DNA of 53,079 nucleotides from Comamonadaceae bacterium. Its GTDB lineage: Bacteria > Pseudomonadota > Gammaproteobacteria > Burkholderiales > Burkholderiaceae_C. The translations under genes were made by a program, and so were the position numbers. Each line of letters starts with the position of its first letter. Within the stretch, counting starts at the first letter, position 1. Under the pieces are notes generated by a model. That model ran no database searches. It saw only the letters and a program-made list of their open reading frames with translations, and had not been told where the DNA came from. Of this stretch, positions 4,484 through 53,079 are shown one piece after another. The stretch is taken from NCBI GenBank assembly GCA_043757205.1, contig JAYVPU010000226.1:1-53079 (forward strand), read 5' to 3'.

Positions 4484-4574
4484 CCGTGATCACAAGCGTG
4501 ACCCCGTCACGCAGCCCACTCAGGATCACCCCCTGGGCTTGACCGTGCACAGCTTGCCCGCGCCAGAGCAGTCC

Positions 4575-13660: not shown

Positions 13661-13700
13661 ATGTAGTCTGATGGTTGGTGTGTGACCTTGGTCGCGGGGT

Positions 13701-13918: not shown

Positions 13919-14011
13919 CAAGCGTGCGAACCCACGAAGTCAGACACATTTCTCTCAGGGTATTCCTATGCCCACCACGACCAATGACTAGTCCAAAATA
14001 GCAAGCTCAAC

Positions 14012-14974: not shown

Positions 14975-14980
14975 GCGTTC

Positions 14981-19708: not shown

Positions 19709-19728
19709 TGAGGGTCTCCTTGTGTGTT

Positions 19729-30388: not shown

Positions 30389-30403
30389 ATTCATTGGAAG
30401 AAA

Positions 30404-35340: not shown

Positions 35341-36648
35341 ATGGAATTTTTTCTGATTGTTTTTCTGACCCTGCTCAACGGCGTGTTTGCCATGTCCGAG
35401 CTGGCGTTGGCGGCCAGCCGCAAGGCGCGGCTCTCGGCCATGGCGGAGGAGGGCGACAAGGGTGCGCAGGCGGCGCTCACGCTGCTGGGCAATCCCAATC
35501 AATTTCTCTCCACGGTGCAGGTCGGCATCACCTCGATTGGTGTGCTCAACGGCATCGTGGGCGAGGCTGCATTCAGCGAAGGTGTGGCCCGCTGGTTCAT
35601 GGGTTGGGGTGTGTCCGCCAGCGCTGCGGCCATCTCTGCCACTGCGCTGGTGGTGACCTTGATCACCTTCACCACCATTATTTTTGGTGAACTGGTGCCC
35701 AAGCGCATTGGGCAACTCCACCCTGAATTGGTGTCCCGCTGGGTGTCGCGCCCCATGCTCTGGCTGGCCACGGCGGTCAAGCCTTTTGTCAAGCTCCTGT
35801 CGGCCACCACGCAGGGCACGCTCATGCTATTGCGAATTGACACGACCGCAATCCGTACCATGACCGAGGAAGAAATCACGGCCAACTTGGAAGAGGGGGT
35901 TGATGCGGGCGTGATTGAGCAACACGAGCATCAAATGGTGCAAAACGTCTTTCAACTTGATGAGCGGCCCCTCACCTCCCTGATGGTGCCGGTGACGGAT
36001 GTGGCATGGCTGGAGGCGTCGCTCACGGTGCGCGAGTGTTTGCAGATCGTCGGCGTGGCGGGTGAGCGGGGTGCGCATTCCTGGTACCCGGTGTGTCGCC
36101 ATTCCATGGAGCATGTGGTGGGGCTCATCAGTGTGGGTAAGTTACTGGAACTTGGGCCAGAACACACCGGCAGCATAGAGGCCCATGCGCAGCCCGCCAA
36201 CTTTGTGCCGGAGACGCTCTCGGGCATGGAGTTGCTGGAGCAGTTTCGCGCGCGCTCAGGGCGCCTGGTGTTTGTGGTGGACGAGTACGGCGTGGTGCAA
36301 GGGCTGGTCACGCCGGTTGATTTGCTCGAAGCCATCACGGGTGAATTGCAACCCGTGGCGCAAGTGGACGCCTGGGCCACCCTGCGTGAAGACGGCTCCT
36401 GGCTGCTGGATGGCTTGATGCCTGTCAGCGAGTTAAAGGCGCGACTGTCTATCAAGAGCTTGCCGGATGAAGACCGTGGGCGCTACAACACCCTGGCGGG
36501 CTTGCTCCAGTCCGTGAGCGGCCATCTCCCCGCCGAGGGTGAGCGCATGGCGTGCGGTGGCTGGGTATTTGAGGTGGTGGATCTGGACAGCCGCCGCATT
36601 GACAAAGTGCTGGCTAGCTTGCTACTTAAAGATAAGGAAAAGGAATAA
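35341..36648 (+). CDS. CNNM/TlyC-family membrane protein (DUF21-CBS pair-CorC_HlyC)
   Basis: MEFFLIVFLTLLNGVFAMSELAL DUF21 N-terminus, a CBS pair, and a C-terminal CorC_HlyC-like domain. Confidence 0.88.
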   Translation: MEFFLIVFLTLLNGVFAMSELALAASRKARLSAMAEEGDKGAQAALTLLGNPNQFLSTVQVGITSIGVLNGIVGEAAFSEGVARWFMGWGVSASAAAISATALVVTLITFTTIIFGELVPKRIGQLHPELVSRWVSRPMLWLATAVKPFVKLLSATTQGTLMLLRIDTTAIRTMTEEEITANLEEGVDAGVIEQHEHQMVQNVFQLDERPLTSLMVPVTDVAWLEASLTVRECLQIVGVAGERGAHSWYPVCRHSMEHVVGLISVGKLLELGPEHTGSIEAHAQPANFVPETLSGMELLEQFRARSGRLVFVVDEYGVVQGLVTPVDLLEAITGELQPVAQVDAWATLREDGSWLLDGLMPVSELKARLSIKSLPDEDRGRYNTLAGLLQSVSGHLPAEGERMACGGWVFEVVDLDSRRIDKVLASLLLKDKEKE

Positions 36649-36696
36649 CCCTCCACAAATTCGCTTTAGACTCAAAGAAAAAATGAGGAGTAAGCG

Positions 36697-37494
36697 TTGG
36701 ACATTCTGACTTTAGAAATCCTGGCAGCATCGCTGCTCGGAGCCACTTTGGGGATTTTGTTTTATCGAAGCCGGATAGTTTCGTGGAAGAAAAAAGAAAA
36801 ACAACTTCCCACCCATTGGAGCCTCAGGCTAAGGCCGATTTTTAGCGACGTTGATCATGCGGTGTGGCTCTGGTTGAAACAGGTTTTTCCTGAACACGAG
36901 GTGCTCGTCAAAGTTCCGGTGCTTCGTTTCTTGAGTGGGTCTTCGGGTGATTTGAAAGCAATGATTCAGATCAAGGACATCTACTGCAGTTTTACAGTGT
37001 GCTCACCCAAAGGCAGGGTGCTGGGCTGTATTGACGTCCCCGGTGCCAAGGGGCTCAAAGCAAGTCGACGCGACCTCAAGAAAAAACTCTTTGAGAGCTG
37101 TGGTTTGCCCTATGCCGTTTTTGGGGCTCAAGACCTCCCAACCCACGAAGCCTTGCGTACTTTTTTCTTGAATGAGGACATGCCGTCTCCCGCTATTACC
37201 AGTCAATTTGAGGCAGTACATTCATCTCAGACGTCCGAATTTGACGAGGCTGAAGCCATGCCAGTCATTGAGAGCGTAATAACTGCAAAATCTGATGATG
37301 CTGCCAGCGTCCGTAACAGTTTGCACGTCAAACTCGACGGTAATCGCAAGAGGCGGCTAGCCGCAATGGAGAGTCTGAAAATGAGTGCGGAGGTTGTCGA
37401 AGACAACGCTGAACAAGGTCTTGCGCCGCGCTGGGACGACTCTTTCATCATGGGCGAAGGCAATGACGCATACCCATCAAGGCCTAACGCCTAA
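36697..37494 (+). CDS. membrane-anchored DUF2726-like (nuclease-fold-related) protein
   Basis: TTG start 6 nt after a strong AGGAG. N-terminal TM helix, then HAVWLWLKQVFPEHEVLVKVPVLRFL...CSFTVCSPKGRVLGCIDV, resembling DUF2726. The C-terminal half is acidic and low-complexity. The DNA is visibly AT-richer. Confidence 0.5.
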   Translation: MDILTLEILAASLLGATLGILFYRSRIVSWKKKEKQLPTHWSLRLRPIFSDVDHAVWLWLKQVFPEHEVLVKVPVLRFLSGSSGDLKAMIQIKDIYCSFTVCSPKGRVLGCIDVPGAKGLKASRRDLKKKLFESCGLPYAVFGAQDLPTHEALRTFFLNEDMPSPAITSQFEAVHSSQTSEFDEAEAMPVIESVITAKSDDAASVRNSLHVKLDGNRKRRLAAMESLKMSAEVVEDNAEQGLAPRWDDSFIMGEGNDAYPSRPNA

Positions 37495-38232
37495 CGCCTT
37501 TGAGTTTGAGTTTGAGTTTGAGTTTGATTTCGCATTGAAGTCATCTGAAAAGCGCAAAAAAATGGTTGCTTCGTTGGTGGTTTTTGGCGTTTGGTGTTGA
37601 TAAGTGGCAGAAACAATGCCGGGTGCTAGCGCTATCAACTGCGTGCCCATGGCGATTGCGGCCTCGCTGCTCATAAAACCCGCCAGCAGCAGTTGCCAAG
37701 TCACGACTCCCTTTTTCTCCAGGCTTTGTTCCGCTTTAACGGGGTAGCCACTTTTTCGCAAGAAGAGAACCAATCTTTGCGCGTTAACTTCCTGCTCGCC
37801 CGCCTCCAGGATCAAGGTCCACGGCGCGTTGGCATAAAGCCGAACGGGCCCATCACCCATTGGCCCACCCTCTAGTGGCAGGCTTTTTGCCGAGGGGCTG
37901 CCGACACGAACGCGACCCTGCATCGCGTTACCTGTGCTGCCACTGCCCTGGTCTTGCCATTCCCACATGCTGTTCTCATGCAACTCAACCTGCTCCTGGT
38001 CCAGTCGCACCAGCACTTTGCCTGCGCGCCCCGTGGTGATCAAAGTCTGACCGGTAATCGGCGTGCCCGCTTGGGCGGGCTCATTTCCAAGCCGTGTTTC
38101 AACCCACGCGGGGGGGCTCACCCATTCGATAAAAGGCGCACCCGTTGCGTCGTTCAGCAGGGCGCAGAACACAAGGAAGACATAGAACTTTGGTATGCTT
38201 CGCGTTTTTAGAAAATGCAAGGAATTGATCAT
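37477..38232 (-). CDS. exported FecR-like / SPOR-like two-domain protein
   Basis: Signal peptide KTRSIPKFYVFLVFCALLNDATGA. FecR-like stretch AQAGTPITGQTLITTGRAGKVLVRLDQEQVELHENS. C-terminal beta-alpha-beta-beta-alpha-beta segment WTLILEAGEQEVNAQRLVLFLRKSGYPVKAE...TWQLLLAGFMSSEAAIAMG is SPOR-like. The tail is (SN)4. Confidence 0.55.
   Translation of the reverse strand: MINSLHFLKTRSIPKFYVFLVFCALLNDATGAPFIEWVSPPAWVETRLGNEPAQAGTPITGQTLITTGRAGKVLVRLDQEQVELHENSMWEWQDQGSGSTGNAMQGRVRVGSPSAKSLPLEGGPMGDGPVRLYANAPWTLILEAGEQEVNAQRLVLFLRKSGYPVKAEQSLEKKGVVTWQLLLAGFMSSEAAIAMGTQLIALAPGIVSATYQHQTPKTTNEATIFLRFSDDFNAKSNSNSNSNSKALGVRP
37482..37530. repeat. two adjacent microsatellites: (GCCTAAC)x2.6 and (TTTGAG)x4 plus one degenerate unit
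   Basis: gcctaac gcctaac gcct (37482-37499), then tttgag x4 and tttgat (37499-37528). They lie in the overlapping 3' ends of the two convergent ORFs. Confidence 0.9.
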
Positions 38233-38947
38233 GAGTAGCGTGATGTTTTACGAAAAACCAGTGGCTGTTAACCGCGATCAACATCGCAGCAGCAAAATTG
38301 GTTCCGTCCCCAACTTTTCATTTTCCGGAAAAACCAATTCAGTGCCTCTGTCAGGCGTTGAGTTTATCGAAGCCTGCAAAGAGTATCCGATTGTGTTTGC
38401 CAAAGTGGGCGACCGCAAAGTCCCCGTGGCCCTGTTAGGCCTGCGCGACAACGACAACCTCTATGTCAAAGCTGACGGCACATGGGACGCCCGCTACATC
38501 CCCGCCTTTGTGCGCCGCTATCCCTTTGTGCTGGCTGAAAAAGGCGCTGACGAATTCGTCGTCTGCATTGATGAAGCCTCATCCGCCTTCAACGCGCCCG
38601 AGGGCCAAGCCCTGTTTGACAAAGACGGTGTCAACACCCCTTTCCTCGACGGTGCGTTGAACTTCCTCAACTCCTACCAAGCGCAAACCCAGCGCACGAA
38701 TGCCTTTTGCAAGCAACTGGACGACATGGGCCTGTTCACCGAGATGTCGGCCAAGTCGGAGCTGGTGGACGGTCGTACCTTCCTCTTCAGCGGCCTGTAT
38801 GTGGTTGACGAAGCCAAGCTGATGGCGCTCACCGCCAAGGCCGCCGTGAACCTGCTCAAATCAGGCGAAGCCGGTTGGATCTATGCCCACCTCATTTCCC
38901 TGTCCAACATGAGTCGCTTGGTCGATCGCATCTCGACCAAGGCCTGA
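38231..38947 (+). CDS. SapC family protein
   Basis: MFYEKPVAVNRDQHRSSKI...YPIVFAK...VPVALLGL...YIPAFVRRYPFVL...FLNSYQ fits SapC (PF07277) along its length. The start may be 38243. The ORF is open from 38195. Confidence 0.8.
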   Translation: MSSVMFYEKPVAVNRDQHRSSKIGSVPNFSFSGKTNSVPLSGVEFIEACKEYPIVFAKVGDRKVPVALLGLRDNDNLYVKADGTWDARYIPAFVRRYPFVLAEKGADEFVVCIDEASSAFNAPEGQALFDKDGVNTPFLDGALNFLNSYQAQTQRTNAFCKQLDDMGLFTEMSAKSELVDGRTFLFSGLYVVDEAKLMALTAKAAVNLLKSGEAGWIYAHLISLSNMSRLVDRISTKA

Positions 38948-38948
38948 G

Positions 38949-40058
38949 CTACAGATCGCCGATCATCACCGCAGTGAGCATCGGCTGATCCAGCATTGCC
39001 CCTGGCTGTTTAACAGTCGCGCCCGCCGCCTCGGCGTCGGCGCGACTCGCAAAAACTCCATAAAAAACCCGCAAACGTCCGCCTGGGGCGGGCAATACAA
39101 ACAGCGGCCGGTCTGGGGGCAGGCTGCTCAGCACATCCAGCGAGGCGGTAACCGGCAGGCTACCCACCTCCAGCGTGAACCCCGTGGCCATTTGCTCGGA
39201 CAAACGTGCCCGGCTGATGTCGATGGCCGCTTGCGTAGCTTCTGGAACCACCACAGGGGGTGGGGGCGGCGTTGGCGTCGGCACCACAGGGGTGGGCATC
39301 ACCTTCTCTGGTGTGGCGGTACTCAAGCGCGTGGGCTCCAAGGTTCGAACAAACGACCAGGCCAGCAATGCCAAACCCACGGCACCCAGCATTAACCAGA
39401 GGACAGCCGTTTTGTCCGCGCCTTTGCGGGGCAACACGGCAGGCGGTGTGGCTGGTAAAGCTAGGCTCGGCAGTTCAGGCCTGGGCTCGTCCACAGGCAG
39501 CGGTATCGTGTTTTCCCAGACGACGTCTTCCTCAGCCGGCAAAACTGGGTCGAGCGGTTTTGCCGCCGCCAGTGGCTTGGCGGCAATCACGTCCACCCGC
39601 ATGGGGGCGGGCGACGAGCGGGCCACCTGCTGAGACTGAATCACCTGATTCAACATCGAATCAAAATCAACATGGTCCAGCAAAACCGGCTGAAACCCGG
39701 CTGAAACCGCCATATTCGCCAAGTCCTTGCGGGCAAACGGGAACAAAATGGCCGGCGCCACCTGGCGCACAAAGCGATGGGCCTCGGCCATGTCGGGCAG
39801 CTCCAGCTCAAAAATCCCGGCCACCGACACCTCAATCAAAAACACATTGCGCCCTGCCAGCCGCGCATGCAGCGAAATGCGCAACACACACTCCATGGCC
39901 CCTGGCCAAGCGGGCTCGGCCAAAGTCTGCATGTCCAGCCCCACCTCGGGCGAAATCGCCTGCTTGGGCAACTCCGCCATGTGAGGCACCTCAACCGAGG
40001 CACCTTTCAGGTAAATGCGAACAATCTTGTACGGCGTGCTGACGGGAACTGAAGTCAT
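38949..40058 (-). CDS. SecB-like chaperone domain fused to Pro-rich linker, one TM helix and a periplasmic SPOR-like domain
   Basis: Residues about 9-150 align by eye with E. coli SecB: YKIVRIYLKGASVE / PEVGLDMQT / ECVLRISLHARL / FLIEVSVAGIFEL / APAILFPFARKDLANMAVSAGFQPVLLDHVDFDSML. The TM helix is AVLWLMLGAVGLALLAWSFV. A PTPVVPTPTPPPPPVVVP spacer follows. The C-terminus is FTLEVGSL...LRVFYGVFASRADAEAAGATV. The ATG at 40058 lies 10 nt after the upstream gene stop. Confidence 0.75.
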   Translation of the reverse strand: MTSVPVSTPYKIVRIYLKGASVEVPHMAELPKQAISPEVGLDMQTLAEPAWPGAMECVLRISLHARLAGRNVFLIEVSVAGIFELELPDMAEAHRFVRQVAPAILFPFARKDLANMAVSAGFQPVLLDHVDFDSMLNQVIQSQQVARSSPAPMRVDVIAAKPLAAAKPLDPVLPAEEDVVWENTIPLPVDEPRPELPSLALPATPPAVLPRKGADKTAVLWLMLGAVGLALLAWSFVRTLEPTRLSTATPEKVMPTPVVPTPTPPPPPVVVPEATQAAIDISRARLSEQMATGFTLEVGSLPVTASLDVLSSLPPDRPLFVLPAPGGRLRVFYGVFASRADAEAAGATVKQPGAMLDQPMLTAVMIGDL

Positions 40059-40068
40059 AAAGTCGGGC

Positions 40069-41178
40069 TCAGCGAGGATCGTAAATGGCCGCAAAGTTTT
40101 GCTGACCCGCGTCAAAGCGCAAATTGCTAAAAGACAAGGAACTGGGTGAAAACTGGTAGTTGTTGCGGCTCACCCGTATCCGCCCAGACCAGCCGGACGG
40201 CATGGAGCAGACATAGCGACCCTGGTTGTCAGTGGGTGCACACTGCGCGCCATCGGCACTCAGCTGCACATTCGCCAGCGCCTCGCCCGTGGCCGCAGAC
40301 CCTGCCCCACCAAACCCGGACGACAAACGCACCACCCCGCTCACGCTCACAGGTGCCGGGGTAAAAGCAGGGGAGAGGACAGGAGGAGGCGCAGGCGCGA
40401 CGGCGGGCACCGCTACCGCGACCGGCACTGCGGGTGCCGCCGCCACGGCCCGCTCAGGCACCGCCAGAGGGGTGGGCGGCGTCTGCACGGGTAGTGTCGG
40501 TGTCGGTGCCGATGCCGATGCCGATGCCGGTGCAGATGCCACAGCCACCATCACCTTGTACCCGGTCACAGGGTTGGGCTGTGCATCACCCGCACCCCAT
40601 CGCAACACGGTGTTCTTGCTCTTCTTTTTGGTTTTGTCGGGGGTGCCCGTCAATGCCAGCAAGAAATCATCCCCCCCTGATAGCCCGACCACGCGCGTGA
40701 GCCCGGACACCCGCATCGGCGTGCTTTGAATCCTGAAAATATCAACCGGGCTGCGACCCAGCTGCCCCTTGTTATTGGCACCCCAGACCCAAACCGTGCC
40801 ATCGGCCAGCAACGCAGCACTGTGCTGCGTGCCCGCACTCACCGCCAAAGCCTGCCCGGCCAGGCCCGTGACCAGCGACGCCCCCGCCACGGGCCGAGAG
40901 TGGCCCAAGCCCAATTGCCCGCTGCTGTTGTCACCCCAGGCCCACACCTTGCCTGCGGCGTCCACCCCGAGTGAATGCCGCGCACCCTTCGCAAGCGCAG
41001 CCCATTTGCGGTCTGCCAGGGGCGCGGGCGCGCTACTCCCCCAAACGGGGGATAGCACAACACATAAAGCGGCCAACATTGCAAGCCAGCGCATGCAGCC
41101 AGACGCCAAAGCTGCCCTAACAAATTGATACATCCGTGATCCAAAAAAGACGGGTCGGGCCCGCTCTGCCCAGCCCAT
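40069..41178 (-). CDS. secreted RCC1-repeat protein with Ala/Pro/Thr linker and carboxypeptidase-regulatory-like C-terminal domain
   Basis: RCC1-type repeats HSLGVDAAGKVWAWGDNSSGQLGLG and HSAALLADGTVWVWGANNKGQLG. (AS)n/PT-rich linker. The C-terminus VSGVVRL...ANVQLSADGAQCAPTDNQGRYVCSMPSGWSGRIRVS resembles a CarboxypepD_reg beta-sandwich. Three in-frame ATGs are possible starts (41178, 41133, 41094). Confidence 0.68.
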   Translation of the reverse strand: MGWAERARPVFFGSRMYQFVRAALASGCMRWLAMLAALCVVLSPVWGSSAPAPLADRKWAALAKGARHSLGVDAAGKVWAWGDNSSGQLGLGHSRPVAGASLVTGLAGQALAVSAGTQHSAALLADGTVWVWGANNKGQLGRSPVDIFRIQSTPMRVSGLTRVVGLSGGDDFLLALTGTPDKTKKKSKNTVLRWGAGDAQPNPVTGYKVMVAVASAPASASASAPTPTLPVQTPPTPLAVPERAVAAAPAVPVAVAVPAVAPAPPPVLSPAFTPAPVSVSGVVRLSSGFGGAGSAATGEALANVQLSADGAQCAPTDNQGRYVCSMPSGWSGRIRVSRNNYQFSPSSLSFSNLRFDAGQQNFAAIYDPR

Positions 41179-41328
41179 ACCTGATTAATGCGGTCGATGC
41201 TAACACCAGCCCCAAGGTCTTCTTTCATTCGCGCCAACACGTATTCAGGGTTCTCCCTTGGTTTGATTACTGAGTGGCGTGTTGTTGATCAAGTAGTGAG
41301 TTTTTGAAAGAAATTTTTGACTTTCGCA

Positions 41329-41337
41329 TGGTATAAA
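41329..41337 (+). promoter_or_regulatory. candidate extended -10 promoter (TGgTATAAA) facing the tpsBA operon
   Basis: TGGTATAAA at 41329-41337, inside the AT-rich 300-bp divergent intergenic region. No good -35 is present. Confidence 0.3.
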
Positions 41338-41380
41338 AGCGGCTGTAAATTTTCGTAACGAGTGTGTCCTGCACACTTTA

Positions 41381-41406
41381 AGGGGGTTTTGCCCCCTCAT
41401 TTTTTG
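41381..41406 (+). terminator. intrinsic-terminator-like hairpin plus T-run in the tpsB leader (possible attenuator or small-RNA end)
   Basis: aggggg-ttttg-ccccct followed by cattttttgattgattt. It is preceded by a second hairpin, agtgtg-tcctg-cacact (41361-41377). It works only in the + orientation. No upstream + strand gene exists for it to terminate. Confidence 0.45.
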
Positions 41407-41483
41407 ATTGATTTGCGCCTGATTCCCCAGCGGGCGTTCAAAGTTTGTGGTTTTTTGTGAAATGAGCGGAGGGGTATTAAAAA

Positions 41484-43262
41484 ATGTTTTTAAAAGAAAG
41501 TCATCCCATGGAATCAACGTTGAATAAAAGCACCCTGTCCCAAGCCATCGGCTTGCTGATTGCGCTGGGTGCGTTCGGTTTAAACCCAGCCCTGGCCCAA
41601 GTTCAACCCGATGCAGGCTCTCTAATGACCACGCCTGCTGCGCCCATGACGGCTCCCCCCAAAGCCCCTGTTTTTGAAATCCAGCAAGACGTGCGTCCCG
41701 TGCTGGTGGTGCCGGGTGGCGTCAAGGTCAAAGTCAATGGCTTCAAAGTCACGGGCAACACCGCTTACCCCTCCGCTGAGCTTGAAGGCCTGCTGAGCAT
41801 GCAAGTTGGCAAAGAGCTTGACCTGGCCGGGCTGGACGAAGCCGCCAGCCTCATCAGCCAGTACTACCGCAACCAGGGCTACTTTGTGGCCCGCGCCTAC
41901 CTGCCCGCCCAAGAAGTGGCCAGCGGCAACATCGAAATCTCCGTCATTGAAGGCCGCCTGGGTGCCGTCAAGCTGGAGCGCAAAGGCGAAACTCGCCTGA
42001 TGGACGAAGTCGCCCAAGGCATCGTGGCTGACGCCTCCCCTATTGGCTCCCCCATTAAAGACCGCAGCATTGAGCGCGGCCTCATGCTCCTCAACGACCT
42101 GCCCGGCGTTGAAGTCAAATCCACGCTGGTGCCCGGTGCCAGCGTCGGTACCTCTGACCTCGTGGTTGAAACCACCCAAGGCCCGCTGATCAATGGCGCG
42201 GTTGACGCCGACAACTTTGGCAACAGATTCACCGGTGCTACCCGTGTGGGCGGCACCGTCAACATCAACGACCCCTCCGGCCGCGGCGACCAGGTCATCC
42301 TGCGCGGCATGGCCTCTGGCCTGGGCGGCGCCAACGGCGACGGTGGCATGCGCTACTTCCGCGGTGCCTACAGCCTGCCCGTGGGCACGGCCGGCACCAA
42401 GCTGGGCGTGGCTTACACCGGCATGAACTACACACTGGGCCAAGACTTTGCAGCGCTCAACGCCAACGGCACCTCCAGCATTGGCAGCCTCTTTGCGGTT
42501 CACCCCTTCGTGCGCTCACGCAACGCCAACCTGTATGGCACGGCCAGCTTTGACAACAAGCGCATCCAAGACAATCAAAACGGCATCAACACCGCCGACA
42601 AAGGCATCAACGTCCTGGCCTTGGGCCTATCCGGTGACTCGCGCGACGGCTACGGCGGCGGCGGCATGACCAGCGGCAGCCTGACCGTCTCTGGCGGCAA
42701 CATCACACTGGACAACGCCAACTTCAACGCCAACGACGCCATCACTGCCCAAACCAGCGGCAGCTACGGCAAATTGACCTACGGCCTCACCCGCTTGCAG
42801 CGTGTGGACGACGACTGGTCTATGTACGCTGCCTTCAGTGGCCAAGCCGCCAACAAAAACCTCGACTCCTCTGAGAAATTCGTCCTGGGCGGCATGGGCG
42901 TGCGCGCCTACCCCCAGGGTGAAGCCGCTGGCGACGAAGGCCAGTTGCTCAACCTTGAAGCCCGCTACAACGTGCCCGGCCTCAAGCTCCAGCTCACCGG
43001 CTTCTTTGACATGGGCCGTGTCAACCTGCACAAAAACACCTGGACCGGCTGGCAGCCTGTCGGCCTGCCCGGCTTCCCCAACAGCTACAACCTGGCCGGT
43101 TTTGGCTTGGGTGCCAACTTCTACGAAGAATCCAACTACACCATCCGCGCCAGCCTGGCCTGGAAGATCGGTAGCAACCCTGGTGCATCGGCCACCGGGC
43201 TTGACTCTGACAACAACAACACCAGCCCACGTCTGTGGCTGCAAGCCACCAAACAGTTCTGA
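41484..43262 (+). CDS. ShlB/FhaC/HecB family two-partner secretion outer-membrane transporter (TpsB)
   Basis: Signal peptide ...LIALGAFGLNPALA. POTRA region VNGFKVTGNTAYPSAELEGLL...ISQYYRNQGYFVARAYLPAQEV..GNIEISVIEGRLG. C-terminal beta-barrel ending in ...WLQATKQF. The start is 41484 (GGAGG upstream) or 41508. Confidence 0.92.
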   Translation: MFLKESHPMESTLNKSTLSQAIGLLIALGAFGLNPALAQVQPDAGSLMTTPAAPMTAPPKAPVFEIQQDVRPVLVVPGGVKVKVNGFKVTGNTAYPSAELEGLLSMQVGKELDLAGLDEAASLISQYYRNQGYFVARAYLPAQEVASGNIEISVIEGRLGAVKLERKGETRLMDEVAQGIVADASPIGSPIKDRSIERGLMLLNDLPGVEVKSTLVPGASVGTSDLVVETTQGPLINGAVDADNFGNRFTGATRVGGTVNINDPSGRGDQVILRGMASGLGGANGDGGMRYFRGAYSLPVGTAGTKLGVAYTGMNYTLGQDFAALNANGTSSIGSLFAVHPFVRSRNANLYGTASFDNKRIQDNQNGINTADKGINVLALGLSGDSRDGYGGGGMTSGSLTVSGGNITLDNANFNANDAITAQTSGSYGKLTYGLTRLQRVDDDWSMYAAFSGQAANKNLDSSEKFVLGGMGVRAYPQGEAAGDEGQLLNLEARYNVPGLKLQLTGFFDMGRVNLHKNTWTGWQPVGLPGFPNSYNLAGFGLGANFYEESNYTIRASLAWKIGSNPGASATGLDSDNNNTSPRLWLQATKQF

Positions 43263-43285
43263 TTCATACCGTGAGCAAGCACACC

Positions 43286-46200
43286 ATGACCAACACCACA
43301 GCATCCAACGCATCTAACAGTCGCAACAACGCATCCGGGAGCAACGCAGTGAATCAAGCAAAAACGGGTAACAAAACCTTCAATAAGATCAAAGCCACTG
43401 TTTATAAAGTCAAAGTCTCAGGCGGCAAAACCCTCACCTACATCTTCCGTCCGCGCCTGCGCATCAGCGCCCTGCTGCGGGCACTGCTCAGCACCTTCAT
43501 CGCCACCATCTCTGGCCACGCCCTGGCGCTAGACGTCAACGCACTGCCCACCGGCGGCGCGGTAGGCGCAGGCAGTGGCAACATCACCACCACCGGCAAC
43601 GCCATGCAGGTGACCCAGGCCACCCAGAACATGGTGGTCAACTGGAACACCTTCAACATCGGTGCCAACTCAGCAGTCAATTTTGCGCAGCCCAACAGCA
43701 GCGCCGTGGCCCTGAACCGCGTCACCAGCACAGACCCCTCCCTCATCTTCGGTAGCCTCACCTCCAACGGCCAGGTCTTCTTAACCAACCCCTCTGGCGT
43801 GCTCTTCGGTGCCACGGCCCGGGTAGACGTGGGCGGCCTGGTGGCCACCACCCTCAGCATCTCTGACGGCGACTTCCTCGCCGGTGCCAGCACCGGCAAA
43901 TACACCTTCTCTGGCAACGGCACGGCTTCCGTCGTCAACCTCGGCACCATCAACGCGGCCCAAGGCGGCTACATCGCCCTGCTGGCCCCTGAAGTCCGCA
44001 ACGAAGGCATCATCACCGCCCGCATGGGCACCGTGGCCCTGGCCGGTGGCAACAGCGTCACGCTCGACATGGCTGGCGACGGCCTCATTAAAGTGGCTGT
44101 GAATACCGGTGCCGTTAACGCCCTGGCCAGCAACAAAGGCCTCATCCAGGCCGACGGCGGCATGGTGTACCTGGGTGCCAAAGGCGCGGGTGATCTGGCT
44201 GCAACGGTGGTGAACAACGAAGGCATCATTGAAGCCAAAAGCCTGGTTGAGCGCGGCGGCAAGATCATGCTGGAGGCGCTGGGCGCTGGCGCAGTGGCCA
44301 CCAACAGCGGCACGCTTGATACGTCTGGTGTGGGCTCGGCCAGTGGTGGTGATATCCGCGTATTGGCGATGGACGGCACGGCTACACTGGATGCCAACTC
44401 TGTCATTTTGGCAAAGGGTGGTGACCAGGGTGGTAATGGTGGTGTCGTCGAACTCTCCGGTAAACACTTCAACTACGCCGGTGTGGTGAACACATTGGCA
44501 CCGCAAGGGCAAACCGGTCAACTGATTATTGACCCGGCCAACGTGTTGATTACTGATGGTGCTTCTGCCGGGGGTTATACGGCTACGCCTGGCAATGTGG
44601 GCACCGATACGATTACCGCCGGGACGATTCAATTCATCACGGGCACTACCGGGTTGAATCTTCAGGCCACAGATGGGATTGCATCAGTCGCTACCAGTAT
44701 CACGGGCGGGGGGCAGAACCTTGGCTTGACATTGATCGCTGGTGGCACACCGACCTCCATTAACGTGGGTACCACGCCCATCGCTTTGGGTACAGGTGCA
44801 TTGACGGTCACGGCCATTGGTACGGCTAACGTGATCGTGGGTGGTGTTACAGGTGCAGGTTTGACGGTGACATCGGGCACTGGTCAGATTACCTTGAACA
44901 ATGCAGTGAATGTGGGTACGGGTGCAATTTCCGTCACTGGTGGTGGCATTGTCGGCACATCAGGTGCAGCAACATTGACCGGTGGAAATGTTTCCCTGAC
45001 CTCGGGTGGCACACAAAATCTGGCAATCGGTGCTGCCGTCACGGCTTCAGGTGCTACAACCTTGACCGGTGCACATGACCTAACCATTGGCGGCGCCTTG
45101 TCTTCCGGTGGTACGGTGAACCTGACTTCATCCAATGTGATTGCAGTCAATAGCAACGTTACCGCAACGAATCAGACGATTAACTTCAACGGCATGAACA
45201 CGCTCACGACCGCAGGGTCAGTGAATGCGGGTGCTGGAACGATCAACATCCTGCCTACCGCTGGAACAACAGTGGGTCTGGGTGGTGGTACAGGTGCCGT
45301 GCAAATTTCGGATGCTAATCTCACGGCCATGACCGCCACAACGGTCAATATCGGCACAGGTGGTGCGACCACCAACAATACAACGGTTGGGACTTTGAGC
45401 CCAGCAGCCACGATTGGTACCTTGAATATTAAGGCAGGTAATGCGGGTACGATCACGCAAGACGGTGGCACGGGTATTGATATTTCTGCAGTTGCAACCA
45501 ACGTCAACTTCATCGCAGGTGCGGGCGTAGGCACCGGCGCTACCCCAATACTGTTTAATACGGCTGTTGGCAAAGGCACCCTGGGTGCAAACACTTCGGG
45601 TGGCACGGGTGACATTTACCTCCATTCCGCAGCCAACGTCGATACGGGTACGTTGGCTATTACCACGGCCGCAGGTGCTCAAAACATTCGTGTTTCTACT
45701 GCAGGCACCTTGACGGTTCCCGTGGCTGGCCTGTCTGCCGCAACCGACAACGTCACTTTGCGCGCTGACAATGAAACCATCAGCGGCACAGTCACAGCCA
45801 ACAGTGTCACGCTGGATCAGTTCAACACAGCTACAACCGTTAATGTCGGTGGCGCTGATGGCGTTGGCGTTTTGGGCGTTAACGCAGCCGAACAGGCACT
45901 GCTCGCCGCAGCCACCGTGCGCTTGGGTCGCTCTGATGGCGGTGCGCTGAATGTGTCTGCTAACACCGGTTTGAATGGTGCAACCACTGCGCTGCATCTG
46001 AAATCAGGCTCAACCGTGGGTCAGTCAGCGGCCACCGTCATCAATGTGGCTGGCTTGGCCGTCACGGCTGGTGGCACGGTGACTTTGGATCAAGCCAACA
46101 CCGTCAACAATTTCGCAGCTTCGGCTGCTAGTCAGCGTGTGGACTTCAAGAACACTGGCAGCATCGATGTGGGGCAGACGGTTGACAGCGTGGCAGGCAT

Positions 46201-49200: not shown

Positions 49201-52200
49201 TGGCCTGATTACGGCTGACACCATCAATCTGCAAACCACCGCCAACAGTTCGGGTGCCGTAGGCGCGACCGGCGCTGGCAATTCGGCCAACACGGCCGGC
49301 ACCACCACGCTGAATCTGGGCCAAGGCAGCACCTTGGCCGGCGCCTACATCAACCACGCGGGGGCCTTGGCCCTTGCTGCACCCAGCCTGGCCACCAATG
49401 CGCCTTTGCATGTGGTCTCCAGTGGCGGCCTCACGTTACCGGGTTCGGTCATCAGCACCGGCACCGGTGAGCTGTACCTGGAAAGCGGTACTTCGCTGTC
49501 CACTGCAGCCAACCTCACCACCACCAGTGGTGCACTGACGCTTAAAGCCGCTACCGGCGTGACGGTGGCCAATGCGTTGCAATCGGGTTCTGGCCCCATC
49601 GTCATCACCAGCACTGGTATTGGTACGGTTGCACTGAATGCCGGCGGCACGGTGACATCCACCAGCGGCACGGTAACCCTGTTGGCCAACGGTGCGACCA
49701 GCGACGTGCTGATCAACGCAGCGGTCAGCAGCACCAGCGGTGCGGTCAACGTAACGGCGGGCAGGACGATTACCGAAGGCGGAGCAGGTGCAGGCACCAT
49801 CGGCACGAGCGGCTTGCTGACGACCAATTCGGGTGGCGCAGTCGGTGCATTGGCTGGCGGCACATCCCTTGGCAATGCCAACACGGTGGGCAGCTTCACC
49901 GCCACCAACGCGGTGACGGGCAACGTGAACCTGGTCAACACGGCAGCGCCGCTGACCATTACCGGCATCACCAACACCGCCGCTAACGGCAACGACACGG
50001 TGACGAACACCGGCGCGATCACCACCACGGGTGCGATCACGACGGCAGCCAACGGGCTGATCAACCTGACCGCAAGCGGCACCGAGACCATTGGTGCAGC
50101 AGTCACGGCAGGCGGTTCTGGTTCTGTCTCGCTCAACGCAACGGGCCTGCTGACAGTCAACCAGGCTGTATCAAGCACCACGGGTGCATTGATCCTCACG
50201 GGCGGCACGGGCGTGACGCACGCTGTAGCCGGTACGCTGGCCACGACTGGTGCAGGCACGATTGACGTGACGGCCACCACAGGTGACGTGACCATGGCCA
50301 ACGGGACGACCTACACAACGGCTGGCGGTACGGTGAACGTGACAGCGGGCACTAACATCGCTCTCGGCCAAGTGACCAGCACCGGCGGCATCGTCAACCT
50401 GACGGCTACGGGCGGCAACATCACCGACAACAACGGTGCCACCAACAACGTAACGGCCACGACCTTGAATGCCACGGCAGCCAACAAGATTGGCAACGTC
50501 TTGCCCGGCAGCGTGCTGACCGGCCCGGCCGATGCGCTGGAAACCGCAGTTTCCAACCTCTCCGTCACCACCACGGGCGCTGGCGTGAACGAAATCGCCA
50601 TCACCAACACCCTCGTTGGCACTTTGACCCCCACGGTGACGCTCAACGGCGGTGGCAGCAGCCATGTTTACATCAGTAACGTCGGTAGCCCGGCCAGCAA
50701 CACGGGCAACCTGAATGTGTCTGGCGTGGCCATGAACCAGAACAACAGCTACGGCTTTGTTGCGGGCGGCACCTTGACCCTGCCCAACGCGGCCATCAGC
50801 GTGGGCACGGGTTCGCTGAACCTTCAGGGTGCGACAGACATCGTCAACACCGCCTCTACGTTCTTGTCGGGTAACCGCATCACGGCGGCTAATTTGCTGT
50901 TCAAGTCGGGCGCTTCGGAGTCACTGCTGACCAACGTGACCAATGCCGACGTGGCGATCACGGGTGCAGGTAACACCTTCACCTTGGTACAAGATGCAAA
51001 TGGCGCTACGGGTACGGCCGATGGTGCCAGCAGCATCACGTTCAAAGACTTGGACGCCAACACCTTCTCGCTGCAAACGGCCAGCGGTGCGGTGAGCCTG
51101 ACCAACAAGCACAGCAACAGCAGCATCACGCTGGCTGATAAGGTGAATCTGGCTTCTGCGGGTGCAGGTGCCAATTTGACTTCGATGGTGCTTCAGACGG
51201 GTGTGGGTTCGGGTACCAACCTGGGTGGCGGCTATGCTGCGGTTGCGGGTACCGATAACAGCGGTGGCAATACGATTGCCACAGGCGCAACGGTGACTTT
51301 GGGCAGTGCGACTACCAACTTCGGTACGCTGGATATCCAGGGTCGCTTTACCAACACGGGTACGCTAAACGTCAGCACGGGGACGACGGCTACCTTCTCG
51401 GCTCCGTCGGCAGACATTGTGTTCACCTCGGCCACCACGGCGGCGGGTAACGTGACCTTGTCACCTGGCCTGTCTAACGACGTGGTGATTCAAAACGGTG
51501 CTTCGCTGAATGTGACTTCCACCGGCACGGGCACGGGCACGTTGACGATTCAAAATGCGGATCAATTGATCTTGCAAACCGGTGGTGCACCAGCCTCGAT
51601 CGACGTGGCAGGTTCCATGGTGGTGAAGAATGTGTACGCCGTGGACATGCAGGTAGGTACCAGCATCAAAGTGGGTACCAACGCTGCAACCAGCGGTGCT
51701 GACGTGTTCCTGGCGACTAACGGTGTGGGTTCGTTCACGATGGGGGCCGGTAGCTCCATTACTGCACCGGGTTCGATCCTGATCAAGGCATCTACCGTGG
51801 CCCGCAATGGCACGGCAACCGACAACGTGGCGGGCGCCCCTGCGGTGGCTACAGGTTTGGTGACGGTGAATAACCTGCAAGTGGACAGCGACGGCGATGG
51901 CGGCATCTATGGTCTGCCAGGTGGTGTGGCCACAGCGCTGGTGGGTACTGCTCGCTTGGCGGTTGAGGGCAGTGGCGTGACCATGACAGGTCTGATCACC
52001 TCGGGTAATGCCAGCAGTTCTTTGGTGCCTTATATCGGTGCAACCACGGGCGGCATCACTACTAGTGGAACGCAGAATTTCACCAATTTTGCAGGCGTAG
52101 AGCTGCAAAGCACCACGGGCAGCATCGGTACACTGGCCAACCCGGTCAGCATGGGTGTGGCCAAGGTGGCTGCCACCACAACGGGTGGCGACATCTATAT

Positions 52201-53079
52201 CAAGGAAGCCGGTCTGGCCGGTGGGCTGGAGGTGGCGAGCTTGTCCACCTTTGACGTGGCAGGTGCCGCCAAGGCGATTTCTGGTGTGACGGTGACGACC
52301 GCTGCCAATGGCACCAAAAACATCAACATCCGGGCCAGCAGCCCGCTGGTGGTGAATGCGGCCGTGACGGACAGCAGCGGTGGCAACATCGTGCTGGCGG
52401 CTGAAGGCAATGCCGTGACCGACAACCTCACGCTCAATGCCAACGTGACTGCAACCGGTGGCAACGGCAATATCAGCCTGTACTCGGGCAATGGCACTTC
52501 CATCTCCAACGGTGTGGCGGTGAATGCAGCGGGTTCGGGTGCGGTGCTGGTGTCTGCGGGCACCAATTACAACGGCGGTACGCCTGCCAATGGCTACGAC
52601 GGCGGCACAGTCGGCAATGGCAGCGCGGGTAGCACGATCGGCATGGCCGGCACCTCGACCATCACGTCAGGCACGGGCAGCATCACTTTGCAAGCACCTG
52701 GCGATATCTCGCTCACCAAGCTGACCACCACTGGCGGTGCGGTGATCGTTAACGCGGCCTACACCGGCCCAGGTGCGACACTGACGGCAACGGGTGCAAT
52801 CTCTGATGTGCTGGCAGCTGAAACCGCCAACATCACGGGCGGTGCAGTGACCTTGAATGCCATGAAGGGCATCGGTGTGGCTGACAACATCAACGTAACA
52901 GCCACCAGCATTGCAGCCAGCAATACCACCAGCGGTGGTATCAACCTGGGCATCATAGGTGCGTCGGCACTGAATGCCATTACCGCTGCGGGTCAGACAG
53001 TGACGCTGGACGCCAGCGGCGCGCTGACGGATGGCAACGGTGCGGCAATGAACATCACGGCCACGAGCTTGGAGTTCAA
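43286..53079 (+). CDS. giant TpsA exoprotein (filamentous hemagglutinin N-terminal/TPS domain plus very long beta-helical repeat region), 3' end beyond window
   Basis: ATG at 43286, 23 nt after the tpsB stop. The frame (position mod 3 = 2) has no listed terminated ORF and reads through to nt 53079, more than 3,264 codons. N-terminus: long N/S-rich extension, hydrophobic signal ...LLSTFIATISGHALA, then TPS motifs NWNTFNIG (43640-43663) and NPSG (43787-43798), then GGDIRV...GGVVELSG...LIIDP. The remainder is a G/T/A/N/V-rich repeat region. Confidence 0.93.
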   Translation, partial: MTNTTASNASNSRNNASGSNAVNQAKTGNKTFNKIKATVYKVKVSGGKTLTYIFRPRLRISALLRALLSTFIATISGHALALDVNALPTGGAVGAGSGNITTTGNAMQVTQATQNMVVNWNTFNIGANSAVNFAQPNSSAVALNRVTSTDPSLIFGSLTSNGQVFLTNPSGVLFGATARVDVGGLVATTLSISDGDFLAGASTGKYTFSGNGTASVVNLGTINAAQGGYIALLAPEVRNEGIITARMGTVALAGGNSVTLDMAGDGLIKVAVNTGAVNALASNKGLIQADGGMVYLGAKGAGDLAATVVNNEGIIEAKSLVERGGKIMLEALGAGAVATNSGTLDTSGVGSASGGDIRVLAMDGTATLDANSVILAKGGDQGGNGGVVELSGKHFNYAGVVNTLAPQGQTGQLIIDPANVLITDGASAGGYTATPGNVGTDTITAGTIQFITGTTGLNLQATDGIASVATSITGGGQNLGLTLIAGGTPTSINVGTTPIALGTGALTVTAIGTANVIVGGVTGAGLTVTSGTGQITLNNAVNVGTGAISVTGGGIVGTSGAATLTGGNVSLTSGGTQNLAIGAAVTASGATTLTGAHDLTIGGALSSGGTVNLTSSNVIAVNSNVTATNQTINFNGMNTLTTAGSVNAGAGTINILPTAGTTVGLGGGTGAVQISDANLTAMTATTVNIGTGGATTNNTTVGTLSPAATIGTLNIKAGNAGTITQDGGTGIDISAVATNVNFIAGAGVGTGATPILFNTAVGKGTLGANTSGGTGDIYLHSAANVDTGTLAITTAAGAQNIRVSTAGTLTVPVAGLSAATDNVTLRADNETISGTVTANSVTLDQFNTATTVNVGGADGVGVLGVNAAEQALLAAATVRLGRSDGGALNVSANTGLNGATTALHLKSGSTVGQSAATVINVAGLAVTAGGTVTLDQANTVNNFAASAASQRVDFKNTGSIDVGQTVDSVAGITATTVNLISNTGVITQGAAGITATNLSATTNAAGKSITLGSSNNAVSNFAAATTGGAVTYVNKNGFTVADLTASGGANGVSSAGGNVSLTAGGTGKTLTVSANVSSGAGNITYVADDMVLTGTTTSTGTVTLNSSTASQGIVLGAGGSGLGLSSAELQTITTTGPLVIGSTTHTGSITADAVVTGVTNPSGAWSMLTSGGAVNFSTYAVTTPGNLTINTKGSGAATGGAVSGTGALTIGAGGASGLTVSADGGIDLTNVGNLANAVSLTNSGSSNISYKNNRNMTLAASNTAAGGTITVVNASGTLDTAGTGVTTGIGAANIDLQTAGLLTVALAAPVTAGGTGSVNLKGAGITVAGIVTGPGGITADSGAVAFSNTGTLTNGAGASAISIKSDDLVLTGGTITGGTGTVTLGRSTAGGTIALGSAIAGGLDTAELATVTATNLVIGGSGFTGTIDTVAAVSLATSTPNVKLQADGASGRITNSGGAAAIVTTNADSLTMLASAGIGAAGGANAMQISPGLGSIAATNSTIGDLNINVTGNFTVGGGSIAQNGSGNLGLSATQNVIIDGNVDLKNSGTITLNAGGAGFTITEGTTGGTLRTGASVNGLTGSVALGGGVTTDSIGTLLKPILTKTSGLTATSASGGLFVSNTGALSIAGATNATGGNLNIAATGALSVDAAVTQNSAANTLTLSGVGLTNNNTITGTPGGLTIDAGTGTLTNAALNIIANGGSAGAVNLTGDSMNLVATSSVTAGSGRVTVAQKTAGTAINLGTATGALDLTTAELGTITTTGVLQVGNSASGAVNVSSAIAPAATKLDIESGSTISGAGSITVTNLALRSVGAVDLTTAASSVANLSANVSGAGNAFAFKDGMALSVGTVDSLAGITTNTGNVTLTAAGLLSQTAAISGATLSTSSTTGTTLNSANTVTGFTASNTVSGNIALTNTAAPLTITLGGITELVGGTVNIQNTGALVLTGSTNAGVAGTVTLDTTGAGTITGAGLITADTINLQTTANSSGAVGATGAGNSANTAGTTTLNLGQGSTLAGAYINHAGALALAAPSLATNAPLHVVSSGGLTLPGSVISTGTGELYLESGTSLSTAANLTTTSGALTLKAATGVTVANALQSGSGPIVITSTGIGTVALNAGGTVTSTSGTVTLLANGATSDVLINAAVSSTSGAVNVTAGRTITEGGAGAGTIGTSGLLTTNSGGAVGALAGGTSLGNANTVGSFTATNAVTGNVNLVNTAAPLTITGITNTAANGNDTVTNTGAITTTGAITTAANGLINLTASGTETIGAAVTAGGSGSVSLNATGLLTVNQAVSSTTGALILTGGTGVTHAVAGTLATTGAGTIDVTATTGDVTMANGTTYTTAGGTVNVTAGTNIALGQVTSTGGIVNLTATGGNITDNNGATNNVTATTLNATAANKIGNVLPGSVLTGPADALETAVSNLSVTTTGAGVNEIAITNTLVGTLTPTVTLNGGGSSHVYISNVGSPASNTGNLNVSGVAMNQNNSYGFVAGGTLTLPNAAISVGTGSLNLQGATDIVNTASTFLSGNRITAANLLFKSGASESLLTNVTNADVAITGAGNTFTLVQDANGATGTADGASSITFKDLDANTFSLQTASGAVSLTNKHSNSSITLADKVNLASAGAGANLTSMVLQTGVGSGTNLGGGYAAVAGTDNSGGNTIATGATVTLGSATTNFGTLDIQGRFTNTGTLNVSTGTTATFSAPSADIVFTSATTAAGNVTLSPGLSNDVVIQNGASLNVTSTGTGTGTLTIQNADQLILQTGGAPASIDVAGSMVVKNVYAVDMQVGTSIKVGTNAATSGADVFLATNGVGSFTMGAGSSITAPGSILIKASTVARNGTATDNVAGAPAVATGLVTVNNLQVDSDGDGGIYGLPGGVATALVGTARLAVEGSGVTMTGLITSGNASSSLVPYIGATTGGITTSGTQNFTNFAGVELQSTTGSIGTLANPVSMGVAKVAATTTGGDIYIKEAGLAGGLEVASLSTFDVAGAAKAISGVTVTTAANGTKNINIRASSPLVVNAAVTDSSGGNIVLAAEGNAVTDNLTLNANVTATGGNGNISLYSGNGTSISNGVAVNAAGSGAVLVSAGTNYNGGTPANGYDGGTVGNGSAGSTIGMAGTSTITSGTGSITLQAPGDISLTKLTTTGGAVIVNAAYTGPGATLTATGAISDVLAAETANITGGAVTLNAMKGIGVADNINVTATSIAASNTTSGGINLGIIGASALNAITAAGQTVTLDASGALTDGNGAAMNITATSLEF

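Follow-up and report, generated by a model that had tools for sequence, protein, structure and literature searches.

A two-partner secretion locus for a giant exoprotein with a candidate accessory module containing a membrane-tethered SecB paralog

Type V secretion is taught as a minimal route, in which general Sec export is followed by passage through one partner protein in the outer membrane. What keeps precursors thousands of residues long fit for export while in the cytoplasm, and intact in the periplasm, is an open question, and it is raised by a locus in a 53,079-nucleotide stretch of DNA from a Comamonadaceae bacterium (contig JAYVPU010000226.1; the whole stretch is called the window here, and coordinates are those of the window): does a two-partner secretion (TPS, type Vb) gene pair, tpsB and tpsA, come with helper genes of its own? 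An earlier reading made from the letters of the window, referred to here as the sequence-only reading, had proposed that five envelope-directed genes preceding tpsBA are a candidate accessory set. In related loci, the genes for a secreted RCC1-repeat protein and for a SecB domain fused to a membrane anchor accompany tpsBA in every informative case, once in a rearranged order; sapC does so in part, and the genes for a DUF2726 protein and an exported SPOR-like protein do not. We give an even chance to the reading that the locus is a type Vb system for a giant beta-helical exoprotein with a dedicated accessory module made up of a tethered SecB paralog and periplasmic partners.

The region from 36697 to 53079 holds seven open reading frames (ORFs), all of which lie where the sequence-only reading had placed them, and its figure of 4.8 kb from the first accessory gene to tpsB is correct. 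The features that bear on the question are as follows.

38231..38947 (+), SapC family protein (Pfam SapC, E 1e-71)
38949..40058 (-), SecB-transmembrane-SPOR-like fusion protein, 369 aa (Pfam SecB, E 4.5e-27)
40069..41178 (-), RCC1-repeat protein with a signal peptide (Pfam RCC1, E 5e-21)
41179..41483, divergent intergenic region of 305 bp between the RCC1 gene and tpsB, with a motif and a hairpin
41484..43262 (+), TpsB, outer-membrane transporter of the Omp85 family (POTRA_2, E 2e-18; ShlB, E 6e-20)
43286..>53079 (+), TpsA, giant exoprotein (TPS domain, E 4e-37; TIGR01901 (adhes_NPXG), E 2e-23)
43382..43456 (+), pre-signal motif of TpsA, aa 33-57, NKIKATVYKVKVSGGKTLTYIFRPR, conserved across the TpsAs of the clade

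This cassette comprises three transcription units: tpsBA, the RCC1 gene with the SecB-fusion gene, and sapC. Its TPS pair is of the type Vb kind. TpsB matched POTRA_2 at 66 bits (cut-off 24) and ShlB at 72 bits (cut-off 22.7), which identifies it as a type Vb transporter, and TpsA, encoded after a gap of 23 bp, matched the TPS domain at 129 bits (cut-off 33.5) and TIGR01901 at 82 bits (cut-off 29.1), which identifies it as a type Vb exoprotein. Only the N-terminal 3,264 aa of TpsA fall inside the window, the ORF being open at its end; this part is rich in Thr, Gly, Ala, Ser and Asn and has no Cys, and beyond the TPS domain no further Pfam domain was found in these 3,264 aa. Complete relatives are 5,981 aa (Gallionella) and 8,298 aa (locus L015) long.

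The SecB fusion consists of a SecB domain (aa ~10-148), a linker, a transmembrane segment (aa ~216-239), a Pro-rich linker and a SPOR-like domain (aa ~270-369). This architecture is kept in the 18 homologs of the family alignment, and the cytoplasmic linker carries two short conserved motifs, PMRLDVIAAKP and WxDTxP. The SecB domain scored 95.1 bits against Pfam SecB (cut-off 26), which makes it a member of the SecB family. In NCBIfam it reached 89.9 bits against the TIGR00809 equivalog (cut-off 102.8) and likewise stayed below the cut-offs of all NF0043xx models. Because it scores under every NCBIfam SecB equivalog cut-off, the fusion is a paralog and not the housekeeping SecB. No signal peptide was found on the fusion, and Lys and Arg residues flanking the transmembrane segment are distributed, family-wide, as 58 on the N-terminal side versus 24 on the C-terminal side. 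By this bias and the lack of a signal peptide, the SecB domain is cytoplasmic and the C-terminal domain periplasmic.

The AlphaFold model of the fusion shows a SecB part with a predicted local distance difference test score (pLDDT) of 85-96, a transmembrane helix at 216-239 and a C-terminal domain with pLDDT >90. In a Foldseek search of the PDB, E. coli and H. influenzae SecB (1QYN/1FX3/1OZB) came out on top at ~1e-8 with TM(target) 0.7-0.76, 1OZB being the complex of SecB with the SecA tail; the next match was Rv1957 (5MTW, E 6e-6), the chaperone of a toxin-antitoxin-chaperone (TAC) system. The residues matching E24 and E77 of E. coli SecB, in what we take to be the reference numbering (it agrees with the HMMER alignment), are invariant in the fusions. 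The C-terminal domain (~100 aa) is modelled as a helix followed by a beta-alpha-beta-beta-alpha-beta core, which is compatible with SPOR topology. It matched Pfam SPOR in 8 of 17 fusion members, always below the cut-off (best E 3.7e-4; 16.1 bits against a cut-off of 21 in the window protein), and the SPOR domain of DamX (2LFV) aligns with it in register at a weak E of 0.09. When the full fusion model was searched against the PDB with Foldseek, SecB-domain matches alone were returned and none for the C-terminal domain. On sequence, these resemblances suggest a SPOR-like domain of the DamX type, and we use the term as a label only; the label given by the sequence-only reading is recurrent in the family but has no above-threshold match behind it.

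To what extent is the fusion tied to TPS? Loci were gathered by fusion-seeded searches, among them scans of genome and metagenome contig collections that gave 5 and 4 loci, respectively; the neighbourhoods were read, and the window proteins were run by tblastn against all fetched loci. In the reverse direction, TpsB homologs were looked up for accessory genes. The RCC1 gene lies directly upstream of the SecB-fusion gene in every locus, and tpsB-tpsA is found divergent beyond the RCC1 gene wherever the contig extends (L003, L005-L009, L011-L015, L019-L021 and L026). Loci with the RCC1 gene, the fusion gene and tpsBA make up ~11 distinct lineages, and no fusion locus with enough flank was found without TPS. 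Across this set, identity to the window fusion runs from 74% down to ~32%, and to 23% in Gallionella, and TpsB identity falls from 85% to 48%; for TpsB homologs in cassette loci overall it is 47-91%. Locus L015, with a TpsB of 53% identity, encodes SapC, a 342-aa fusion (hhalign probability 100, 35% identity) and an RCC1 protein. The Gallionella locus L016 (TpsB 47%) has no accessory gene upstream of tpsB; the order on Gallionella contig JAXMKV010000047 is tpsB, tpsA, sapC, a Sel1-repeat gene, small ORFs, the RCC1 gene (522 aa) and the fusion gene (373 aa), and this fusion matches Pfam SecB at E 5.7e-25 and aligns over its full length by hhalign with probability 99.7 at 23% identity.

The genes have also stayed together through other changes. 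In L006 an insertion sequence (IS) with a DDE_Tnp_ISAZ013 transposase lies between tpsB and the RCC1 gene (3657-4724 of that locus), and the outer flanks differ by lineage: a CoA ligase and two-component genes in L006, ManC and FecR genes in L007, chemotaxis genes in L026, RF3 in L022 and PKD/YdjY genes in L015. That the genes remain linked despite a reordered locus, an inserted IS and wholly replaced flanks points to a functional association. Contigs of the same sizes (for example 11190, 7801, 6628, 6922, 3687, 5792, 8140, 10919 and 9570 bp) recur across three protein match lists, which indirectly suggests that two or three of the genes occur together on many other short contigs.

The partner encoded with the fusion has a signal peptide, RCC1 blades, an Ala/Pro-rich linker and, in the alignment, a conserved C-terminal beta-sandwich-like domain of ~90 aa that carries a GWSGR motif and two invariant Cys residues; L015, L022 and L026 have two copies of this domain. 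The invariance of the two Cys is consistent with a protein located in the oxidising periplasm. The window protein matched RCC1 at 75.5 bits and RCC1_2 at 68.6 bits, both above their cut-offs, and has ~3 blades, with more in relatives of 430-604 aa; its match to WD40_RLD, at 96 bits against a cut-off of 150, spans positions 31-170 of 363. Of the secreted RCC1/CarboxypepD_reg-like protein that had been proposed, the RCC1 repeats and the signal peptide are borne out, and the CarboxypepD_reg part is weaker than proposed, the C-terminal domain giving a match at E 0.036. Between the end of the RCC1 gene and the start codon of the SecB fusion there are 10 bp in the window and 2-25 bp in relatives, and given this spacing the two genes form an operon. 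A hexanucleotide array, TGCCGA x5.7 at 40507-40540, lies inside the Ala/Ser/Pro linker of the RCC1 protein.

SapC is the third candidate component. The window protein matched the SapC family (PF07277) over its full length at 241 bits (cut-off 28.9; model positions 2-220 of 220) and is predicted to be cytoplasmic. The gene was found in most cassette loci, and identity among the proteins, 57-94% (65-94% across the cassette loci), is far above that of the other accessory proteins. Its AlphaFold model, with pLDDT 84.7 and a predicted template modelling score (pTM) of 0.79, gave no fold match in the PDB at E<0.1. The family is abundant, with 5,730 matches. In L024 a sapC gene (57% identity) has giant cadherin/Big_9 adhesin genes on one side and a distant TPS pair on the other, where neither an RCC1 gene nor a SecB fusion was found. 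A sapC homolog (Cag_662) also lies beside, and is co-expressed with, genes for giant hemagglutinin-repeat proteins in Chlorobium chlorochromatii, and sapC occurs in type I secretion operons as well (bioRxiv 10.64898/2026.03.19.712371). As an accessory gene, SapC therefore holds up in most cassette loci, but it is also present without TPS (L023) and beside other giant adhesins (L024). The annotated start codons of sapC (+) and of the divergent gene for a 251-aa protein (-) overlap at 38230-38233 and are ~43 bp apart in relatives; this may reflect a wrongly assigned start, or promoters that each sit within the opposite gene.

TpsA of this clade has a feature of its own just before the hydrophobic core of the signal peptide (aa 58-81), a motif with the consensus [FY]xV[KR]xxGGKx[LM]TYx[FY]RPR (core GGKxLTYxFRPR). 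The TpsAs of the window, L006, L007, L011, L012, L015, L016, L017 and L026 all carry it, and the distant TpsA of L024 lacks it. We considered whether it is an ESPR (PF13018) and rejected this, as no Pfam match, to ESPR or to any other family, was obtained at E<=10 over the first 105 aa of TpsA; it is a different sequence at the position ESPR usually takes. The C-terminus of the window TpsA lies outside the window, and a toxin of the contact-dependent growth inhibition (CDI) type was looked for in the complete TpsA of the Gallionella relative instead; none was seen there, the last 1,000 aa being DUF5649 repeats and the next gene sapC. The sequence of this relative's C-terminus suggests that the system is not of the CDI subtype.

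A TTGAC-N9-TATAAA motif lies at 41310-41335, in the stretch that separates the RCC1 gene from tpsB, and TTGAC(A)-N9-11-TATAAA also occurs upstream of tpsB in L012 and L007. This spacing falls short of that in a standard sigma-70 -35/-10 pair, and a consensus promoter scan of 36500-43500 returned nothing. Within the 5' leader of tpsB lies a terminator-like hairpin, G5T4GC5 AGGGGGTTTTGCCCCCT, followed by a T-run (41381-41406); hairpins of the GGGG(G)TTTT(T)CCCC type are also found in the L012 and L026 leaders, so that motifs or hairpins resembling those of the window are present in the tpsB leaders of L012, L007 and L026. From its sequence, the hairpin may be an attenuator or a protein-binding element. 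An Rfam scan of the whole window gave no match at gathering score.

Has such an arrangement been described before? A profile search of 1.84 billion representatives returned 1,981 SecB-like proteins and ~30 clusters of full-length fusions, 320-445 aa long. The fusion family was found only in TPS loci, from a small set of freshwater and soil betaproteobacteria, and where source records name the fusions at all they call them "protein-export chaperone SecB". A full-text literature search found no description of a membrane-anchored SecB or of a TPS locus with SecB, RCC1 or SapC partners, which agrees with the remark of the sequence-only reading that the combination with a tethered SecB could not be matched to a described system. 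FhaB is targeted post-translationally by SecA/SecB, and in a review the specificity of chaperones for large substrates of type V secretion systems is given as unknown, no cytoplasmic chaperone peculiar to these systems being known (PMC8151025). These results suggest that the RCC1 protein and the tethered SecB, usually with SapC, form an undescribed helper module for the export of very large proteins.

The gene content, the architecture and topology bias of the fusion, and the co-localisation of the RCC1 and tethered-SecB genes with tpsBA are observations; a mechanism that would join them can be sketched as follows. At the inner membrane, the tethered SecB would capture the precursor of TpsA, which is very long and translocates slowly, and possibly that of TpsB as well, perhaps through the clade-specific GGKxLTYxFRPR pre-signal motif, and would pass it to SecA/SecYEG. 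The periplasmic SPOR-like domain and the RCC1 protein could anchor the export site to peptidoglycan, receive the emerging chain, or both, so that the chain would reach TpsB without aggregation or degradation, and SapC would act in the cytoplasm on giant secreted proteins. In this sketch we infer the identity of the client, the hand-off to SecA, the binding to peptidoglycan and the roles of the RCC1 protein and SapC. Recognition of the GGKxLTYxFRPR motif by the dedicated SecB is proposed by analogy to the chaperone-addiction segment of TAC antitoxins. The suggestion of the sequence-only reading that such a machinery may localise or gate export at a defined envelope site is plausible. A more specific version, in which the clade has a four-to-five-component envelope-spanning machine whose tethered SecB reads the GGKxLTYxFRPR sequence as a tag on TpsAs of 6,000-8,000 residues and couples the Sec translocon to peptidoglycan and TpsB via the SPOR-like domain and the RCC1 protein, is tentative, and we lean against it.

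On that more specific version, the tethered SecB would be the first dedicated component in the cytoplasm or inner membrane to be described for a type V system. A conserved, locus-encoded tethered SecB with periplasmic partners would offer a genetically tractable handle on how giant precursors are kept competent and intact, and would add an example of the SecB fold recruited to a dedicated client. For SapC, a widespread family, the locus would provide a setting in which a role in handling giant secreted proteins could be tested.

Several points weigh against the reading of the locus as a type Vb system with a dedicated module. D20 of E. coli SecB, one of the residues that bind SecA, is Gly in most fusions, and both the SPOR and the CarboxypepD_reg assignments fall below curated thresholds. 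The cassette is three transcription units and not one operon. No sapC gene lies within 10 kb in L006 and L026, and in L023 a sapC gene of 63% identity stands without TPS, among peptide-transport and urease genes and with no giant gene in the surrounding 10 kb. The related loci are all on metagenome contigs of betaproteobacteria (Rhodoferax, Polaromonas, Rhodocyclaceae and Gallionella), and because all come from this one part of the betaproteobacteria, shared ancestry contributes to the synteny. The L017 locus (TpsB 47%) was read only up to its fragmented tpsA. The client could be TpsA, TpsB or the RCC1 protein, and the proposed mechanism is drawn from sequences and predicted models. In L017, TpsA is split at 11889-14127 into pieces of 171, 588 and 745 aa, after which comes a gene of 4,958+ aa; the fragments could be a pseudogene or an assembly frameshift.

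The shared ancestry of the loci bears directly on the possibility that the RCC1, SecB-fusion and sapC genes stand beside tpsBA by descent from one ancestral arrangement and have an unrelated envelope function. Every locus derives from related betaproteobacterial metagenome-assembled genomes, the CNNM flank of the window is also kept in L012-L014 and L020, and the conservation of CNNM, DUF2726 and the 251-aa protein as neighbours shows that synteny here can persist without a functional link. However, L006, L007, L026, L022 and L015 have wholly different flanks and yet hold the four genes together, the Gallionella locus kept the linkage through a rearrangement of gene order, and adjacency persists while fusion identity falls to 23-32%; descent by itself is thus a rather improbable explanation. 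A different objection starts from SapC, whose conservation of 57-94% exceeds that of the other accessory proteins and whose family has 5,730 matches. SapC may be a generic factor for giant secreted or surface proteins of type I or Vb systems, as its position beside giant cadherin/Big_9 adhesins and a distant TPS pair in L024 and its co-expression with neighbouring giant hemagglutinin-repeat proteins in Chlorobium chlorochromatii would fit, and the RCC1 protein and the fusion would then be a clade-specific minor or redundant add-on. This is unlikely, though worth keeping in view: the L023 gene has a peptide-transport and urease setting without a giant gene within 10 kb, the cassettes of L006 and L026 have no sapC within 10 kb, and there is no PDB fold match, so that no activity can be assigned.

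The fusion itself could be read in two other ways. The RCC1 protein and the tethered SecB may make up a trans-envelope sensing or protective module concerned with tpsBA regulation, quality control or self-protection, in which the SecB fold would sequester a cytoplasmic partner. SecB-like proteins can serve non-secretory clients, and Rv1957 (5MTW) is among the Foldseek matches; the bitopic layout with a periplasmic domain resembles that of signalling and anti-sigma-type proteins; D20 is replaced by Gly; and the gene pair is divergent from tpsBA across a shared intergenic region with conserved motifs. But the cassette has no conserved gene for a sigma factor, a regulator, a toxin or an antitoxin, the SecB domain is nearer to canonical SecB (E 1e-8) than to Rv1957 (E 6e-6) and retains E24 and E77, and the Gallionella TpsA ends in DUF5649 repeats, with no toxin domain that would need immunity; we assign a small probability to this explanation. 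The periplasmic end of the fusion, which is in register with the SPOR domain of DamX, raises instead the possibility of a DamX/DedD-like division or peptidoglycan-associated protein with a SecB fold, linked to TPS indirectly through polar or septal envelope remodelling. The overall N-in, transmembrane, SPOR-like layout matches that of DamX, DedD and FtsN, and a second SPOR-like protein is encoded nearby in the window lineage. Division proteins with SPOR domains, however, are near-universal single-copy housekeeping proteins, whereas the fusion family is rare (~30 clusters) and seen only in TPS loci, and its SPOR match is sub-threshold, so that such a role is very unlikely. Each of these accounts we rank below the reading of a type Vb system with a dedicated accessory module.

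Under that reading, how does the locus compare with known systems? It is like the classical TPS systems (FhaB/FhaC, ShlA/ShlB, HMW1A/HMW1B with HMW1C, and CdiBAI) in having a POTRA_2/ShlB TpsB followed by a TpsA with a TPS domain and a long beta-helical body, and it differs from them in its conserved operon of RCC1 and tethered SecB, usually with SapC, and in the non-ESPR pre-signal motif on TpsA. No dedicated inner-membrane or cytoplasmic chaperone is described for classical TPS (PMC8151025). The third genes known there encode HMW1C glycosyltransferases or CdiI immunity proteins. Unlike CdiBAI, no toxin/immunity pair was detected in the complete Gallionella relative. The locus has the defining features of type Vb secretion and would work like a TPS system with a dedicated chaperone relay.

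Canonical SecB, which FhaB uses, shares with the fusion the SecB fold and the equivalents of E24 and E77, but it is ~155 aa long and found in housekeeping contexts, whereas the fusion (330-460 aa) adds a linker, a transmembrane segment and a periplasmic domain, has Gly for D20 and sits in a TPS locus. The structural match to the TAC chaperone Rv1957 (5MTW, E 6e-6) is to a paralog dedicated to a client encoded next to it, which is recognised via a short client segment. Unlike the fusion, the TAC chaperone is soluble and its client is a cytoplasmic antitoxin, with no secretion involved; the fusion, unlike TAC systems, is membrane-anchored with a periplasmic domain and has no conserved toxin-antitoxin genes nearby. 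DamX, DedD and FtsN share with the fusion an N-in orientation, one transmembrane segment, a Pro-rich linker and a C-terminal domain, which in the fusion is SPOR-like; the fusion departs from them in its sub-cut-off SPOR matches, its cytoplasmic SecB domain, its rarity and its restriction to TPS loci. ExeA/GspA is an inner-membrane protein that has an AAA+ ATPase and a PF01471 peptidoglycan-binding domain and serves the type II secretin. By analogy with it, a cytoplasmic functional domain and a periplasmic peptidoglycan-binding domain could together aid an outer-membrane pore, although the fusion has no sequence or domain homology to ExeA/GspA. The sapCDEF genes of Campylobacter fetus and Cag_662 of Chlorobium chlorochromatii are like the window locus in placing a SapC-family gene beside genes for very large secreted or surface proteins; those loci are of type I (ABC/MFP/TolC) and the window locus of type Vb.

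The two remaining genes of the proposed set lie at the left end of the region.

36697..37494 (+), DUF2726 protein, 265 aa, with an N-terminal membrane anchor (Pfam 33.8 bits, cut-off 24.7)
37477..38232 (-), exported protein of 251 aa with a signal peptide, a C-terminal SPOR-like domain and an (SN)5 tail (SPOR E 0.005, below the cut-off)

The first is the membrane-anchored DUF2726 protein that the sequence-only reading had described, with DUF2726 above its Pfam cut-off and a hydrophobic N-terminal anchor. Neither gene, however, qualifies as accessory. The DUF2726 gene is beside the cassette only in L012-L014, the closest relatives, and the gene for the 251-aa protein only in L012-L014 and L020, each time together with the CNNM/CorC gene that flanks the window locus. 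Both were rejected as parts of the system because they are restricted to the closest lineages alongside the CNNM flank, and from their distribution they look like lineage neighbours and not parts of the module. In the comparison of synteny with tpsBA that the sequence-only reading had called for, it is the RCC1 and fusion genes that keep their place and the DUF2726 and 251-aa genes that do not.

The SPOR match of the 251-aa protein reached 17.5 bits (cut-off 21) in the window and 20.5 bits (E 6e-4) in the L020 homolog. Its description as FecR-like did not survive: no Pfam match to FecR (PF04773) was found at E<=0.1, and hhalign against a true FecR protein gave E 0.47 and a probability of 0.1%, so that this identity was rejected. 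A true FecR-domain protein of 839 aa (E 1.8e-11) is encoded in L007 at 12459-14978, and also in L008, two genes past sapC and after ManC; the L007 protein is unrelated to the 251-aa protein. The (SN)5 tail is encoded by a hexanucleotide array, TTTGAG x4.8 at 37499-37527, and is missing from the L012 and L013 homologs. With the array at 40507-40540, this makes two hexanucleotide arrays, in line with the microsatellites reported by the sequence-only reading.

That reading had also taken the region to be an AT-richer accessory island. The lower GC content applies to the first two genes (0.50 for the DUF2726 gene, with 0.54 at third codon positions, and 0.55 for the 251-aa gene) but not to the SecB-fusion, RCC1, TpsB and TpsA genes, at 0.605-0.645 against a window mean of 0.603. 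Because the core genes match the window mean and the left flank consists of housekeeping genes that are syntenic in relatives, a recently acquired island is not supported. The rest of the window is ordinary chromosome, with an aa3 cytochrome oxidase operon, argG, TctC/Bug receptors, aconitase, a LysR regulator, a DEAD-box helicase, a metallophosphatase and CNNM.

Some minor observations concern genes outside these subjects. A cytoplasmic protein of ~170 aa (MKINQVNxTY...) without a Pfam family is encoded in L015 (6369-6881) and L022 (13700-14215), with 38% identity; neither the window nor any other locus has it, and L015 and L022 are the two most divergent cassette loci. In the window, an ORF of 505 aa at 29561-31078 (-) has typical codon bias and no Pfam match at E<=1e-5. 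Clustered TctC/Bug receptor genes are typical of Burkholderiales chromosomes, and the window has four within 16 kb, at 11501-13789 (-), 14012-14974, 18695-19765 and 26716-27681, one of which encodes a 762-aa protein with the TctC domain in its C-terminal third only.

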